Below, piece after piece: positions 3,500 through 15,417 of a DNA stretch of 15,417 bases. The stretch comes from an uncultured Desulfobacteraceae bacterium. Its GTDB lineage: Bacteria; Desulfobacterota; Desulfobacteria; Desulfobacterales; SKZT01. How positions within the stretch are numbered: position 1 is the first letter of the stretch; the number at the start of each line of letters is the position of its first letter. The stretch lies in contig CAZNTU010000130.1 in assembly GCA_964575975.1 (NCBI GenBank), positions 1 through 15,417 of the forward strand, written 5' to 3'. The position numbers were made by a program, and so were the translations under genes. The notes under the pieces are model-generated. The model was not told the DNA's origin, made no database searches, and saw nothing but the letters and a program-made list of their open reading frames with translations.

Positions 3500-4655
3500 C
3501 AAAGCCGCCTCCATTTCTTCATTCCCCATACGAAAAATACCGCAGCCAAAACTCCGGAGACCGCCGAGACGACTGCCACGCCGGAAATTCCGAAAGCGGT
3601 CCACAAGGGCCCCCCGAACAGCGCTCCGGCCACTCTTCCCATTCCCGACGCCGCCAGGAAGCCGGACATCATGGTGGCTCTGCTTTGGGGAAGCAATTCG
3701 GTGCAGAGCGAGAGACTCGAAACAATTGTAAATTCGTATGTCAGAAAAATCAGGAAAATTACCGTCAGCGCGAAAGGCAAGTACGCGTCGCAGAACGGCA
3801 ATGGCAAATAGCAGCATGTGGACAAGACGGTTCCTGCCAAGACGGCTCGCTTCAGCCCGATCCTGTCCGATACGAAAGCGGTCAGAAACTCTCCGGACAA
3901 CTCTGCGGCGCCTATGACCGCAGCTCCGAAGCCCAGCGCGATCAGGCTCATGTCGAAGGTCTTTTCGAACCATGCTCCATAAATCACGAAAAGATTGTCG
4001 TTGGCAGCGCTGACAAAAAACGAGAATCCAAGCATACCTACGGAGGATTTTTTCCGGAACAATCCTTTCAACAATGCATGGCCCCCCCCCCCGACCGAGG
4101 AACTTTCTCCCGCGCCTTGTCTCCTCTGCACAACAACGTAAAAAGCAGAATGCCGACGAAGCCGAGCATGGCAATCGCAAAAAAAGGGGAACGCCATCCC
4201 CAGTTTTCCATCATTATTCCCACCAGGGGAATTCCCATCAACGCACTCCCGGCCCAACTTACCTCCAGAAGCCCGATTACCAAGCCACGACGTTCGAATG
4301 GGACTCTTCGTCCCACGTAAGCCTGCAAGGACGGGTCGAATACGTTTTTTCCAATCCCTGCGAGAGTAAGGCCCGCGAAGACGAAAGCGTAGACAGGAAA
4401 AAAGGCGGCGGCGATCATTCCGGTCGAGAGCAGGCAGAGTCCGGTCAGCATCATGACCCGGTAGCCCATGCGGTCGGCGACGGGGCCGAAAAAAATGGCG
4501 AAAACGCCGGTCGCTTGGTTTGCAGCGAGAATCGGTGTGACAGCGGTCAAGGGAACGTTCATTCCCCGACTCAGTTCGGGCGCGAACGGATAGGGAAAGC
4601 GCCTTGCGGTGTTCAACAGGAAACGGCATGAAACGACCAAGGCAAGTTTCAACAC
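3493..4655 (-). pseudogene. MFS-family transporter with its reading frame broken at a G11 (plus-strand C11) homopolymer at 4082-4092. The N-terminal half (frame of ORF 4068..4655) and C-terminal half (frame of ORF 3493..4659) are both intact
   Basis: The N-half carries MFS motif A (GPVADRMGYRVMM) after the first helix. The C-half is multi-TM. The two frames abut exactly at the homopolymer. One extra G (G12) would give ...KVPRSGGGGHALLKGLFRKK... continuously. GTG/TTG start at 4655/4652 with a weak RBS. Only 5 clear TMs in the N-half, so the N-terminus may also be degraded. Confidence 0.75.
4082..4092. repeat. C11 (minus-strand G11) homopolymer tract at the MFS frameshift site
   Basis: Counted directly: g at 4081, then 11 c at 4082-4092. 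Confidence 0.9.
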
Positions 4656-4677
4656 CCACAGGGACTTGGCGTTCGAA

Positions 4678-7540: not shown

Positions 7541-7612
7541 AAGGTATGCGCTCCTAAATGTTTAAACGGTTTCTATCACCACTGTTATTGCCTGAATATT
7601 GCAAAACCCCGA

Positions 7613-8428: not shown

Positions 8429-8452
8429 CAGAACCTCATATAGATTTTCAAT

Positions 8453-8520
8453 CTTTCAGCTGTCGGCCTTCAGCTTGCTCCGAATCGCGCGACGCGAAAA
8501 ACCAGGCCGTAAGCTGAAAG
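8453..8520. repeat. Imperfect 16-nt inverted repeat CTTTCAGCTGTCGGCC (8453-8468) / GGCCGTAAGCTGAAAG (8505-8520), 14 of 16 complementary, with 36-nt spacer. A nested TCGCG-CGA-CGCGA mini-hairpin sits at 8485-8497
   Basis: Seen in the 112-nt qrcB-qrcC intergenic region. Would form a long-range stem-loop in the polycistronic mRNA. Confidence 0.5.
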
Positions 8521-8540
8521 CTAAAATTATTTTGAAAAGC

Positions 8541-10775: not shown

Positions 10776-10859
10776 GGATTTTACCTCGTTATGTGAAAAT
10801 GCGAGCAATATTATTCTTGTTTTTTTTCGAGTCCGCAACAGAATGATATTTCATAGCTC

Positions 10860-11549: not shown

Positions 11550-11575
11550 GGAATCTCCGTCAAAAAGTGGTTTAA

Positions 11576-11616
11576 ATTTTCACAAAAGAACCCAAACAGA
11601 CCTTGAAAAAATTCAA
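11576..11616 (-). promoter_or_regulatory. Candidate class II CRP/FNR-family-dependent promoter for qrcA. TTGAA-N4-TTCAA dyad (11603-11616) is centred about 40.5 bp upstream of a predicted TSS. Extended -10 TGTGAAAAT (minus strand, 11584-11576)
   Basis: Dyad core TTGA-N6-TCAA matches 8 of 10 positions of the FNR box. The TG-n-GAAAAT spacing is exact for an extended -10. Predicted 5' UTR is about 20 nt. All positions hand-derived; no experimental support. Confidence 0.4.
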
Positions 11617-11796
11617 CGCCGGTTCCGTCGCCTTTTTCGAAATCGTATGGCCTGTACAATGAAAAAGCGCCGAATCGGGCGTTTCCGAACTTGAAAAGAA
11701 ACTATTTCCATAGGGTCGGGCGCCCGCCCCGAACAAACGGGACTGAAAATAATTTGAGTCTGTTTATCTATAGTTATCTGTTTTGTCAAGAAAAAA

Positions 11797-12639
11797 TCAT
11801 TGACCCATGCTGCCGTAACTGTGCAAGCCCGGCAAAAGATTCACGCCGAAATACGTGAAAAGGACCGCGGCGAAACCCGCCACCGACAGCCATGCGATTC
11901 TCTTCCCTCGCCACCCGCGCATCATCCTGGCATGGATCAGCGTCGAATAGATAAACCACGTGATCAGAGACCATGTTTCCTTCGGGTCCCATCCCCAATA
12001 GCGGCCCCACGCGCTGTTGGCCCAGACCGCCCCCGTTATGATGCCCGCCGTGAGAAACAAAAACCCGAACATCACGAGCTGGTAAATCAACTCGTCCAAA
12101 ATCGACGAGTCCGGAAGCCGACCGAGGAGACTGCTTTCGCTCCGGGCGCGTTTCTTCAGGATGTACATGACGGCGATTCCGAAGGCGACCGCGAAAGCCG
12201 CGTAGCCGACAAAGCACGTGATCACGTGGGCGATCAGCCAGTTGCTTTTCAAAGCCGGGACCAACGGCTGTATACGGTCGCTGATGTTCGGGGAAAGGCT
12301 CGCGTAGGCCAGGGCCAGGAAAGCCAAAGGCGCGGTGAACGCACCGATGACCCGGTTCTTGTACTTCATTTCGAGAACCAGGTAGACCGCTATGATGGTC
12401 ATCGAAAAAAAGACCAGGGATTCGTAAAGGTTGGACAAAGGCGCGTGACCGAAACCCATTTGGTAGGATTCGATCCATCGCAGCGCGATTCCGGCCAGGT
12501 TTCCGAAAAGTCCGGCCAAGGCGACCCATGTGGCCGCCTTGGCCGGACTTTCTTTCTTGAAAACCCACGAAAAAACATACAGAAACGCCGACAATCCATA
12601 AACGAACGTAGTGACGGACAATATGCTGGAACTGTTCAT
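11797..12639 (-). CDS. ccsA: Cytochrome c biogenesis protein CcsA/ResC (system II heme-handling protein, 280 aa)
   Basis: Polytopic membrane protein with the tryptophan-rich WWD motif WGRYWGWDPKETW and conserved flanking His residues. GAGAGG SD upstream of the ATG at 12639. Confidence 0.9.
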   Translation of the reverse strand: MNSSSILSVTTFVYGLSAFLYVFSWVFKKESPAKAATWVALAGLFGNLAGIALRWIESYQMGFGHAPLSNLYESLVFFSMTIIAVYLVLEMKYKNRVIGAFTAPLAFLALAYASLSPNISDRIQPLVPALKSNWLIAHVITCFVGYAAFAVAFGIAVMYILKKRARSESSLLGRLPDSSILDELIYQLVMFGFLFLTAGIITGAVWANSAWGRYWGWDPKETWSLITWFIYSTLIHARMMRGWRGKRIAWLSVAGFAAVLFTYFGVNLLPGLHSYGSMGQ

Positions 12640-12682: not shown

Positions 12683-14059
12683 TTATTCCATCGCCCGCAA
12701 TTGCTCCAAAATACTTTTCACCTTTTGCGCCATCCCGAGTTTGTTCTTGTTCGAAGAACCGGCGACCGTCACGCGGCATCCGTTGCCGGTCCGGACAGCC
12801 TCCACGAACAGGCGCTGGTGGGATATGAAAAAAGTGACGAAACATCCGGCGATCATCACGACAAAGCCGAGATATACAAGGGGGACGCCAGGATCGTACG
12901 TGACCTGAAGACCCGTATAGAATTTCTCGTCGTATTTTTCCACCGCGATCACGAACTCGCCTTTTCGCATGCGGTCGAAATTGGGAAAGCGAAGAGGCAA
13001 TACGATCTCGACCGGCTCCTTGTCCTTGAGGTTCAATGTTCCGATGAACGCCTGGCCGATAGAATGTCCCCGGAACTGCGCGTTGTCGCTGAAGCTTTGC
13101 AGCACGAATGTACCCTTGCCGTCAGGAAGATCGATCGTTTGGCCGACCTTCGCCTTTTTCATGATATTGAACCCGAACTCCTCTTCCCTAGTGGCGATGC
13201 TCAAGGTGACCGTGTCCGAGGGGACGGACCCGTAGCTAGACTGGAAAATATTGATGCCCTCGTATCTCAGAGGATCGTTAACGATGATGTCCTTTTTCAG
13301 AACTTCCTTGCCGTTCTCCAGTATCGTCAGCGAGCTTCGGTATTCCTTGGGGGTGCCGGACTCGTAGAAGCTGACGTCGAAATCGTCGCACCGAATCGCG
13401 AAATCGAGGGCTTGAATCGCGGGTTTGTTTCGCAGGCGGATGCTGTCGACGGTCTCGCCCTCGGGGATGTTGACGAATCCCTCGAATCCCATGATGGAGC
13501 CGATCAGACCGCCCAGCAGCAAAAAAATTATGCTCAGATGGACGATATAAGCCCCCAACCGGGTCCAACGTCCCTTTTCAGCTAAAAAGACCCACCCATT
13601 GTCGGTCTCTTCGACGCGGCAATAACCGAATTTCCTGCGAAGGAAAGGTTCGTACAGTTTGCGCAAGTCCTGGGCCGACCGGTCTCTTTCAAACTCCTCC
13701 TTGTCGGAATCGCCTCTGAAGCGTCCCGGATTGAAGGAGGGCTCTTTCACGAAAACCACCTTCCAAGCGGTCGGAAGCCTGTCCAGGGAACACACGACCA
13801 CGTTGGCCGTCAAGACGATCAGGACAAGCTGAAACCACCACGAATGGTACATGTCGAACAGATCCAGGAACGAAAACAGCGCGTAGAGCTTCGGGCCGTA
13901 GGCTTGCATATAGGCTGCGGGGCTTTCGTTCTGGGGGATGACGGTACCTATTATGGAAGTGGCCGCCAAGGTCAACAATACCGCGACCGTAAGCTTTACG
14001 GACGCGAAAAACCTCCACACCCCGCCAAGGGGGGTCGGAGAGGTATCGCTTCGTTCCAT
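12683..14059 (-). CDS. ccsB: Cytochrome c biogenesis protein CcsB/ResB (458 aa). Start taken at ATG 14057-14059 (MERSDTS...), not the track ATG at 14098
   Basis: N-terminal TM helix after WRFFASVKLTVAVLL, a large soluble middle domain, and a C-terminal TM pair (VYLGFVVMIAGCFVTFFISH), which is the typical ResB architecture. AAAGGA SD 8 nt upstream of the 14059 ATG. Nothing SD-like before 14098. Confidence 0.85.
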   Translation of the reverse strand: MERSDTSPTPLGGVWRFFASVKLTVAVLLTLAATSIIGTVIPQNESPAAYMQAYGPKLYALFSFLDLFDMYHSWWFQLVLIVLTANVVVCSLDRLPTAWKVVFVKEPSFNPGRFRGDSDKEEFERDRSAQDLRKLYEPFLRRKFGYCRVEETDNGWVFLAEKGRWTRLGAYIVHLSIIFLLLGGLIGSIMGFEGFVNIPEGETVDSIRLRNKPAIQALDFAIRCDDFDVSFYESGTPKEYRSSLTILENGKEVLKKDIIVNDPLRYEGINIFQSSYGSVPSDTVTLSIATREEEFGFNIMKKAKVGQTIDLPDGKGTFVLQSFSDNAQFRGHSIGQAFIGTLNLKDKEPVEIVLPLRFPNFDRMRKGEFVIAVEKYDEKFYTGLQVTYDPGVPLVYLGFVVMIAGCFVTFFISHQRLFVEAVRTGNGCRVTVAGSSNKNKLGMAQKVKSILEQLRAME

Positions 14060-14599
14060 CAATAATTCCTTTCCGATTCTATCCGGACTCGATCCCATAA
14101 TCGACGTCTCGTCAAAATGCCGTTTCGTGCAATCCGCGCGGGCGCGCCGGTTCGCGGCTCTCCTTCAAATCGACGAACGAGCATAATATTCATCCTCCCG
14201 GGACTTTTCCAGGTCTAACGCGAATTTTAGTGTCGGGTTTTCCCGTAGCCGCATTGGCTGGAAAATCGTTGCGGAAACATGTTTCATACTTTTCGGCTCG
14301 AGGCACCTACCCGACTCGATCATTGTTGGCGGCGCCCCGATGCAATAGGAGGTTATAACAAAACGGCAATATGGAAGCAACACAAAGAAAAAAACTGGAT
14401 TTGTTTAAAAATCGGCGGATTCGGAACTTGCAGGCAAGTACCGTGCTGTGGAAACGCGATTCTTGACAATTCCGGTTTCCGTATAAGGTTTTGATGTAAC
14501 GAGGCCGATCGAAAATGAAAACAACGATATGAAAGCGCGCGCCGAATTGGAAAAATGGACGGGCGGCAACCTTTTTATTCATGCCGCATTAAGCGAGGC

Positions 14600-14628
14600 T
14601 TAACTATATTATAAAACTATATTATAAA
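14600..14628 (+). promoter_or_regulatory. Candidate sigma70 promoter for the small Cys-rich ORF: TTAACT (14600-14605), 17 bp spacer, TATAAA (14623-14628)
   Basis: Hexamers and spacing read from sequence. Embedded in the tandem 13-bp repeat. Predicted 5' UTR about 115 nt. Confidence 0.3.
14602..14627. repeat. Perfect tandem direct repeat AACTATATTATAA x2, followed by AGGTG-N5-AGGTG
   Basis: Exact 13-mer at 14602-14614 and 14615-14627. AT-rich island inside a GC-richer genome. Confidence 0.9.
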
Positions 14629-14749
14629 GGTGATAAAAGGTGTGCAGAATCCGGACTCGGACACTCGTCCGCGCTGGCGTGGCGCGAAACGGCCTATCGA
14701 CAAACGAAAATCGGAAACGGGAAGCGTACCGGCTCCCCAAGGAGGAAAT

Positions 14750-14920
14750 ATGGCAAAATCTTCAAACGCTCGCAAGTGTTGTTCGATGGAAAAGGAACAC
14801 CTGATGGAGGAACTTAGAAAATGCGACATGAGTTCCTCCAATTACGACGAATTTCACCAGTGCTACCGGGATGCCGCAAGAGAAAGCGGCCTGCGCGCCA
14901 GATCGTGCGTCACCGAATAG
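14750..14920 (+). CDS. Small Cys-rich hypothetical protein (56 aa): MAKSSNARKCCSMEKEHLMEELRKCDMSSSNYDEFHQCYRDAARESGLRARSCVTE
   Basis: ATG at 14750 with AGGAGG 5 nt upstream (14741-14746). TAG stop at 14918-14920, followed 20 nt later by a strong terminator. Five Cys including a CC pair. The longer track ORF from 14630 lacks an RBS. Confidence 0.55.
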   Translation: MAKSSNARKCCSMEKEHLMEELRKCDMSSSNYDEFHQCYRDAARESGLRARSCVTE

Positions 14921-14939
14921 AACGGCGCGACAAGCGCCC

Positions 14940-14974
14940 AAAAAGCCGCAGGGGATATCCCCTGCGGCTTTTTT
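14940..14974. terminator. Bidirectional rho-independent terminator: perfect 24-nt palindrome GCCGCAGGGGATATCCCCTGCGGC flanked by A5 and T6
   Basis: 10-bp GC-rich stem with ATAT loop. T6 on the plus side and T5 on the minus side. Sits between the convergent Cys-rich ORF and the encapsulin gene. Confidence 0.88.
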
Positions 14975-15007
14975 AATTCAAGAGGTATGGAAGGTTTTTG
15001 CCGAAGT

Positions 15008-15417
15008 TTATCTTTTTATGCTCATTTTAACGAATACCGAGTCGTCGAGGATGCGGAACGTAAACGATTCGGTCAGGTAAAGCGAGACGGTGTCCTTGTC
15101 GTGCTGGGCGTAGCCGATCATATAATCCTGCCCCAAAATCAGCTCCAAATCTCCGCCGCGCATGGAAACCAGAAAGGCGTCCCGAATTTCCGAAGCGTAC
15201 AAGATCGGACCCCCTAAAAGATTTTCGATATGCCGTCGCAAAGGATAACCGTTCAAATGCCTTGAGAGAGTTCGCCATTCCGCCGGATTTACCACAAGCG
15301 CGTACGGTCCCTCTACCGAGGCTTCCAGCAGGGTGGTTATCCCTGTCGAAACGGCCTCCAGGATCTCGGGAATTTGGTCGGAAAACTCCAGAAAGTGCCG
15401 GGACGCTTCGTACATCC
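15008..15417 (-). CDS. Family-1 encapsulin (linocin M18-type) nanocompartment shell protein. Only the C-terminal ~135 residues are in the window; the 5' end lies beyond the window edge
   Basis: The C-terminus ...VEGPYALVVNPAEW...GYPL...LVSMRGGDLELILGQDYMIGYAQHDKDTVSLYLTESFTFRILDDSVFV aligns residue-for-residue in character with the T. maritima encapsulin C-terminus (GPYTLVINTDRW...GHYPL...[50 protein letters not shown]). The M at 15415 is internal. Confidence 0.88.
   Translation of the reverse strand, partial: MYEASRHFLEFSDQIPEILEAVSTGITTLLEASVEGPYALVVNPAEWRTLSRHLNGYPLRRHIENLLGGPILYASEIRDAFLVSMRGGDLELILGQDYMIGYAQHDKDTVSLYLTESFTFRILDDSVFVKMSIKR

Follow-up and report, generated by a model that had tools for sequence, protein, structure and literature searches.

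What lies in the 690 nt that separate resB (also called ccsB) from a small open reading frame (ORF), here called Z, on a contig of an uncultured Desulfobacteraceae bacterium, and does so long a spacer hide a gene or an RNA? The gap covers positions 14060–14749 of the window, by which we mean the whole 15,417-nt stretch of DNA that was analysed, and it is a divergent spacer, with resB on the minus strand (ATG at 14059) and Z on the plus strand (14750–14920). No other spacer of the contig comes near it in length, the runner-up measuring 247 nt. The initial annotation had described an AT-rich island with no convincing ORF, a perfect 13-bp tandem repeat, an orphan Shine–Dalgarno (SD) sequence and GC dyads, and had proposed that the region could hide a small RNA (sRNA), a cis-regulatory leader for ccsBA or the degenerate remnant of a gene; all of the motifs that it listed are found where it had placed them. 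Our conclusion, to which we assign a probability of about 0.7, is that the gap is an ordinary, unusually long, non-coding divergent regulatory spacer which hides no gene and no known RNA. It would be a composite, in which inherited and non-homologous DNA form a mosaic at a synteny breakpoint, and its unusual length would be due to this position at a point of rearrangement. Like the ordinary back-to-back intergenic promoter regions of bacteria, it has two genes reading outward from a common non-coding spacer, AT-rich patches, −35/−10-like hexamers on both strands, an SD at each start and no ORF with coding statistics. It differs from them in its length, about threefold that of the next longest spacer on the contig, in its mosaic make-up at a synteny breakpoint and in an exact 13-bp tandem duplication. 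Coordinates of the features are collected in Table 1.

The description as an AT-rich island proved to be overstated. The G+C content of the gap (48.6%) is indeed below that of the genes (53–56%), but among the nine other spacers of positive length on the contig seven are lower still (35–48%; the exceptions are 4563–4677 and 14921–15007), and only two stretches within it, 14360–14419 (35% G+C) and 14570–14659 (28–30% G+C), are strongly AT-rich.

That the gap contains no convincing ORF is correct. Twelve of its thirteen ORFs of at least 24 aa fall below zero in codon log-likelihood (−0.12 to −0.27 per codon), and the remaining one, a 24-codon ORF at 14529–14603, is slightly positive (+0.14); the twelve annotated genes of the window range from +0.05 to +0.36. 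Two ORFs of the gap are preceded by a suitably spaced SD (4–12 nt), a 54-codon ORF starting at GTG 14640 and a 41-codon upstream ORF (uORF) ahead of resB. The former has a negative coding score, and its GTG is preceded at 7 nt by the first AGGTG of the AGGTG-N5-AGGTG motif. The latter resembles translationally coupled upstream ORFs that overlap the next gene through UGAUG, having GGAGG-N9-ATG and a TGA overlapping the resB ATG, but differs from them in its negative codon score (a log-likelihood ratio of −0.27 for a 44-codon version) and in its lack of conservation in L003, the locus of the closest relative, where the frame is broken by four indels and meets a stop after about 21 codons. Coupling of the uORF to resB was rejected on this lack of conservation, and the uORF is probably fortuitous. 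A Pfam search of all six frames of the gap, with stops masked, gave no matches, and Pfam and NCBIfam searches with the longest gap ORFs found nothing. The longest of all, at 91 aa, was also discarded as a real protein: a HMMER (phmmer) search against 1.84 billion representatives returned a single match (P0126), an artefact in which a 53-aa satellite (tandem) repeat has been translated into a pseudo-protein and the E-value sums ten weak repeats.

It is likewise unlikely that the gap encodes an sRNA or a structured, riboswitch-like cis-regulatory leader for resB-ccsA or for Z. Such an RNA would suit a spacer as long as this one (690 nt, compared with at most 247 nt elsewhere), a leader conserved above four-fold degenerate sites, as described below, and a plus-strand window (14390–14509) that folds at z = −2.6; this last, however, is one of 60 windows tested, and coding windows reach −3.1. 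In the 120-nt sliding fold scan, made on both strands, every window of the gap had z > −2.7 and none was stronger than those within coding regions. The resB-sense leader folds at z = −0.05 in the window and at z = +0.44 in L003, none of the 35 pairs predicted in a two-sequence consensus fold is compensatory, and no intrinsic terminator was found within the gap. At gathering thresholds Rfam gave no match anywhere in the window. When the limit was relaxed to E ≤ 10 for 13900–15100, 15 matches appeared; all are centred on or near the terminator hairpin at 14940–14973 and none lies inside 14060–14749, the only one to extend into the gap being a CsrC match at 14672–14978 of second-lowest rank (16.1 bits, compared with a gathering score of 61); these sub-threshold sRNA matches are caused by the terminator palindrome. 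Two candidate short RNAs that were assembled from terminator and promoter pairs, at 14495–14585 on the plus strand and 14545–14605 on the minus strand, were dropped on finding their folds unremarkable, and no tRNA or tmRNA was found. The proposed sRNA is thus unsupported, and the Rfam covariance-model scan which the initial annotation had put forward as a check leaves the gap empty.

A more informative picture comes from comparison with relatives. The protein database holds one close relative of this ResB (P0002, encoded at L003; 85% identical), with the next at 74% and 69%; the protein neighbours of the contig indicate an origin in Desulfobacterales / Thermodesulfobacteriota. The operon is the same at L003, where resB is preceded by radical-SAM genes in the same orientation. 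At the loci of the 69–74% relatives (L004 and L005) the genes upstream are others again, and the spacer cannot be aligned further than about 45 nt ahead of the start; pattern scans of metagenomes of the Joint Genome Institute (JGI) for the conserved distal block (block B) and for the leader core gave no matches. The comparative alignment that had been suggested for the gap splits it: the resB-proximal leader (14060–14200) and block B (14333–14391) are conserved in L003, whereas 14201–14332 and the Z-side stretch (14392–14749) have no counterpart there. Four-fold degenerate sites are 74% identical between the two loci (610/821 over five shared genes; 67% in resB), and since the leader is 84% and block B 88% identical, both appear to be somewhat constrained non-coding DNA under mild purifying selection. 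The proposal of a cis-regulatory leader for ccsBA therefore stands as far as 141 resB-proximal and 59 distal nt are kept in a relative at 84–88% identity against 74%, but not as a structured RNA, given fold z-scores near 0 and no compensatory pairs. We suggest that the resB-side third of the gap (14060–14200 plus block B) would be inherited promoter/leader DNA of the resB-ccsA-Qrc-like operon, split by a 132-nt indel at 14201–14332: in the local alignment window position 14200 faces L003 position 5904 and window position 14333 faces 5907.

This 132-nt segment might in principle be a small mobile or repetitive element, similar to a miniature inverted-repeat transposable element (MITE), which inserted into the resB leader. 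Its presence in the window and absence from L003, the short CGGG microhomology at both junctions and an internal inverted repeat (GTCGGGT/ACCCGAC) are all compatible with this. Yet terminal inverted repeats are absent from the segment, neither the window nor any of the fetched loci contains it a second time, its fold is ordinary (z = −1.4), and a deletion between CGGG repeats in the L003 lineage fits the data equally well; we therefore regard a MITE-like insertion as improbable.

Block B, read on the resB strand, contains TTGCTT-N17-TGtTATAAC-CTCC (−35-like element at 14380–14375, −10-like element at 14357–14352), to which TTGCGT-N17-TGcTATAAC-CTCC corresponds in L003. Its score on the σ70 position weight matrix is unexceptional (6.9 bits), and we infer from its conservation that block B is the best candidate for the promoter or an operator of resB. 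The orphan SD of the initial annotation can be placed here as well. The consensus TAGGAGG at 14346–14352 on the plus strand does indeed have no start codon 4–12 nt downstream, the next ATG (14371) being 18 nt off, and while GGAGGTTATA is conserved in L003 as DNA, ATG 14371 is not (AAACGG in L003), so that the motif is not an SD; it is the opposite strand of the CCTCC(TA) that directly follows the −10-like element in block B. By simple arithmetic about 0.3 occurrences of AGGAGG are expected on either strand of 690 nt. The GC dyad GCGCG-GG-CGCGC upstream of ccsB is present but is not conserved in L003.

On the other side of the gap, the likeliest −35 element of Z would be the octamer CTTGACAA at 14462. 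Only two copies of it occur in the 15.4-kb window, both in spacers and both pointing at the downstream gene; the second (11783–11790, minus strand) opens the spacer between ccsA and the cytochrome gene, a deeply conserved spacer that is retained even in the 69–74% relatives. In the Z clusters of three other loci (L012, L020 and L023) a cTTGACAa box lies 227–277 nt before the Z ATG. Z would then be transcribed from about 14490–14500, with a 5' untranslated region (UTR) of about 250 nt containing the AT-rich duplication, and the whole of 14392–14749 (358 nt) would have arrived together with this small Cys-rich gene; no DNA similarity was found between this stretch and the upstream regions of any Z homologue. 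A search for σ54 promoters (TGGCAC-N5-TTGCW, with invariant GG and GC 10 nt apart) found none in the gap with up to 2 mismatches, the nearest match, CAGCACGGTACTTGCC (14449→14434), lacking the GG.

Several observations weigh against reading the gap as a regulatory spacer of this kind. There is a single alignable relative, so that "conserved" denotes a two-sequence comparison, in which the excess over four-fold sites amounts to z ~2.3–2.5 by a normal approximation, and the internal spacers of the operon (94–99%) surpass the resB leader in conservation. The −10-like hexamer of block B lacks the final T. When matches to TTGACA-N16–18-TATAAT were compared with shuffled sequence, no σ70 candidate of the gap exceeded the 95th percentile of the shuffles (12.3 bits; the best shuffled match averages 9.6 bits), for which reason every promoter assignment made here is a predicted one; a consensus scan for σ70 found 2 sites where 1.1 are expected. 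Finally, a regulatory spacer leaves unexplained the exact pair of ATCCGGACTCG 11-mers and the over-representation of their 9-mer core, CCSGACTCG, of which five copies fall within 2.6 kb (12106, 13356, 14083, 14310 and 14651) against 0.43 expected in the window. This pattern, selected post hoc, reaches five copies in none of 200 shuffles, and L003 shares just the one copy that adjoins the resB start.

Of the motifs in the initial annotation only the 13-bp tandem duplication goes beyond chance, the others being individually at or near chance level. The repeat is real: none of 200 windows shuffled in 60-nt blocks contained a perfect tandem duplication with a period of at least 13, and no further copy of AACTATATTATAA exists in the window with up to 2 mismatches. 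It is a true duplication, probably produced by replication slippage. The gap region, both copies of the 13-mer included, is 100% identical in three assemblies from different samples (L001, L002 and L025), and the window as a whole matches the ENA metagenome contig ERZ22278262 NODE_3946 exactly. Duplication of the 13-mer moves a pair of hexamers on each strand from a spacing of 4 nt to the optimal 17 nt (4 + 13 = 17). The plus-strand promoter proposed over the repeat, TTAACT-N17-TATAAA (14600–14628), is present but not favoured, for it scores 6.7 bits on the σ70 matrix and the minus-strand pair TTATCA-N17-TATAAT (14636→14608) scores 11.5 bits, neither of them above the shuffles. The latter agrees with the consensus at 10 of 12 positions, is the best σ70 match of the gap and faces resB rather than Z. 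The duplication may thus supply a second, divergent promoter or an AT-rich operator. We consider it a very doubtful extension of this idea that the duplication was a recent promoter-creating mutation, giving rise within the long 5' UTR of Z to a new bidirectional promoter towards resB-ccsA-qrc and Z which, in combination with the shared ATCCGGACTCG 11-mers, might tie cytochrome maturation to a Cys-rich micro-protein linked to oxidative stress. The adjoining AGGTG-N5-AGGTG is likewise present but at chance level, about 7 such close 5-mer repeats being expected in 690 nt by arithmetic.

Could the duplicated 13-mer instead be an operator, with two direct half-sites for a regulator (for example of the Fur/PerR type, or a response regulator) that controls Z? 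The repeat is exact and beyond chance, each unit contains ATTATAA, which is the right half of the Bacillus subtilis PerR box TTATAATNATTATAA (consensus as quoted in PMC545781), and Z directly follows Fe/Mn-superoxide dismutase and rubrerythrin genes in two other loci (L011 and L016). The likeness to a Fur-family 7-1-7 operator is therefore that of a perfect half-site within an AT-rich box, close to a gene which in other loci is associated with oxidative-stress genes. It ends there, because the 13-mer units are direct rather than inverted repeats, are spaced by 13 bp, which is not a helical repeat, and lack a left half-site: on direct reading the best 7-1-7 arrangement, at 14600–14628, matches at 7/7 positions in the right half and 3/7 in the left. 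A 7-1-7 operator was rejected on this absence of an inverted partner. Neither the upstream regions of the Z homologues nor the rest of the window contain a similar box, no regulator gene lies nearby, and predicted PerR sites of δ-proteobacteria depart from the Bacillus consensus (PMC545781). An operator of this kind, with two direct half-sites for a regulator of Z, is thus very unlikely.

Judged by the conservation of its sequence, Z is a real gene: five protein clusters (P0121–P0125) contain homologues that are 64–71% identical over 89–98% of its length, P0121 being a 100%-identical truncated copy, ten further Z loci were found in genomes, and the family has 24 invariant columns (CC..EK..L..LRKCD..Y..HQCYRD.AR.SG.R.R). 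Z belongs to a trio of tiny Cys-rich ORFs (X, Y and Z) that cluster in metagenome-assembled genomes (MAGs) of Desulfobacterales, at L012 531–1269, L017 720–1342, L018 2308–3162, L019 1664–3156, L020 2728–3484, L021 2698–3153 and L023 2718–3090; the window, at 14750–14920, holds Z alone. X follows the pattern M..MP(S/T)RD.TGKC.GEC(R/K)D.V...RQKEI...GG(R/H)V, and Y is an acidic peptide ending in ...CCCY(V/I).D.DG.Y...C..P..ECC(CC). None of the three has a Pfam or NCBIfam family. AlphaFold models Z as a two-helix hairpin (predicted local distance difference test score, pLDDT, of 83), for which a fold search against the PDB gave no match, only generic helical hairpins at E > 2. In some MAGs (L011/L016 86–2221; L015 ~923) Z is the final gene of an operon of rubrerythrin, a hypothetical protein and Fe/Mn-superoxide dismutase (SOD) and starts 16 nt after the SOD stop, an arrangement that hints at a function in redox processes or oxidative stress. 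In the window Z is convergent with an encapsulin gene. Upstream of Z in L008/L019 (~5640–5830 in L008 coordinates) there are three to four tandem units of about 45 nt, each with a CCCCCTTTGGCAAAGGGGG hairpin, forming an array like those of repetitive extragenic palindromic (REP) elements, and the same locus also has a PAS-σ54 activator gene and the σ54-like boxes GGCACGGTACCTGCA and TGGCACGGAACCTGC.

It is highly unlikely that the gap is a decayed gene, such as the acidic poly-Cys gene Y, which lies between the cTTGACAa box and Z in related clusters, or the radical-SAM gene that precedes resB in the relative: the 287 nt from CTTGACAA to the Z ATG, compared with the 227–277 nt that Y fills in L012, L020 and L023, a GAGG-N10-ATG at the position of the Y start, the 24-codon ORF at +0.14 and a G+C content above that of most spacers would be in its favour, but neither the codon statistics, nor the six-frame Pfam/NCBIfam and 1.84-billion-protein HMMER searches lend it support, the gap gives no match to profile hidden Markov models (HMMs) of X and Y (best E = 1.4), nhmmer and global DNA alignment to Y-containing regions give z = −1.0 to +1.1 where true Y regions give z = 2.5–11 among themselves, tblastx against all of the neighbouring loci finds nothing outside the L003 leader blocks, and the relevant frames contain no Cys codons.

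We return to the gap as a long divergent spacer and to the operon that it precedes. The start of resB is well placed at ATG 14059: its SD GGAAAGGA (14067–14074, minus strand) lies 7 nt ahead, and the homologues P0005, P0007 and P0013 begin at the equivalent position. An N-terminal extension to ATG 14098 (a 471-aa reading) was rejected, because all four substitutions relative to L003 would be non-synonymous and other homologues start at the equivalent of 14059; the apparent conservation of GK(D/E)(F/L)LM in the extended reading is due to the SD GGAAAGGA. After ccsA the minus-strand operon continues with genes for a cytochrome of 229 aa that has five CXXCH motifs, a molybdopterin-family protein of 744 aa that carries a twin-arginine (Tat) signal and starts MKLSRRCFLSLA, a four-cluster FeS protein and an NrfD-family membrane protein. 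A Qrc-type operon is expected to encode, in succession, a cytochrome c with several haems, a molybdopterin-family subunit exported by the Tat system, an FeS subunit with four clusters and a membrane subunit of the NrfD family, and the domain order found here agrees. We tentatively take the module to be Qrc-like, after the QrcABCD of Desulfovibrio. The gap resembles the leaders of other resB/ccsB-ccsA (system II cytochrome c maturation) operons, such as the Bacillus subtilis resABCDE promoter region, in lying directly upstream of ResB (PF05140) and CcsA (PF01578) and in having a proximal leader that is retained in a relative. It differs from them in showing no sequence similarity to any described regulatory element, in its upstream neighbours, which change from one examined relative to the next (radical-SAM genes, an acyltransferase gene, an ABC transporter) and in that the operon runs on into Qrc-like genes.

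The internal spacers of this operon (11550–11796, 10776–10859, 8429–8540 and 7541–7612) are 94–99% identical to those of L003, compared with 74% at four-fold sites. The 247-nt spacer between ccsA and the cytochrome gene, which begins TTTTTTCTTGACAAAA..TAACTATAGATAAACAG and ends GTGAAAWTTTAAACCACTTTTTGACGGAGA, can be aligned even in the 69–74% ResB relatives and has no Rfam match; the respiratory module probably has its main promoter, under tight control, and its 5' UTR here.

Table 1. Features of the gap and of the genes around it, in window coordinates.
Feature	Positions	Strand	Remarks
ccsA	11797–12639	minus	PF01578
resB/ccsB	12683–14059	minus	PF05140; first gene of the resB-ccsA-Qrc-like operon
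41-codon uORF	14059–14184	minus	GGAGG-N9-ATG 14184; TGA overlaps resB ATG (TGATG); only minus-strand gap ORF with a usable SD; probably fortuitous
resB proximal 5' leader, non-coding	14060–14200	minus	84% (114/136) to L003 5904–6039; 5 gapped nt, frame-breaking indels
ATCCGGACTCG 11-mer, copy 1 of two exact	14081–14091	plus	conserved in L003
GC dyad GCGCG-GG-CGCGC	14136–14147		L003 equivalent, CGTCGTG-CCGCAC, is no dyad
Lineage-specific 132-nt segment	14201–14332		no counterpart in L003; CGGG microhomology at both junctions
Block B, conserved distal block	14333–14391	minus	50/57 (88%) to L003 5851–5907; core 40/44
Z-side stretch, Z upstream region	14392–14749	plus	no local alignment to L003 5641–5850, which has radical-SAM genes instead
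CTTGACAA, perfect −35 box aimed at Z	14462–14469	plus	287 nt before Z ATG; TAAGGT 15 nt downstream; best plus-strand σ70 score in gap (9.3 bits)
Exact tandem duplication, AACTATATTATAA x2	14602–14627		Tandem Repeats Finder score 54, 100% match; best array in window
AGGTG-N5-AGGTG (ATAAAGGTG / ATAAAAGGTG)	14628–14642	plus	adjoins the duplication; read from the sequence
ATCCGGACTCG 11-mer, copy 2	14649–14659	plus	91 nt before Z ATG
ORF Z, 56 aa, Cys-rich	14750–14920	plus	SD AAGGAGG 14739–14745
Perfect palindrome AAAAAGCCGCAGGGGAT/ATCCCCTGCGGCTTTTT	14940–14973	both	34 nt, 17-nt arms, 100% complementary, A5/T5 flanks; bidirectional intrinsic terminator, Z / encapsulin
Encapsulin shell gene (Linocin_M18, E = 2.7e-32)	15008 to past 15417	convergent with Z	cut by contig end; cargo gene not in view

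The gap is of little importance in itself, and its analysis strikes one candidate for a hidden sRNA or gene off the list. The annotation of the locus is improved, with the start of resB set at 14059, Z recognised as a real 56-aa gene and the orphan SD accounted for. As a by-product, X, Y and Z emerge as uncharacterised tiny Cys-rich proteins of Desulfobacterales that are sometimes joined to SOD/rubrerythrin operons. The internal spacers of the operon, conserved far above synonymous sites, would be real regulatory DNA that is worth study in sulfate reducers.

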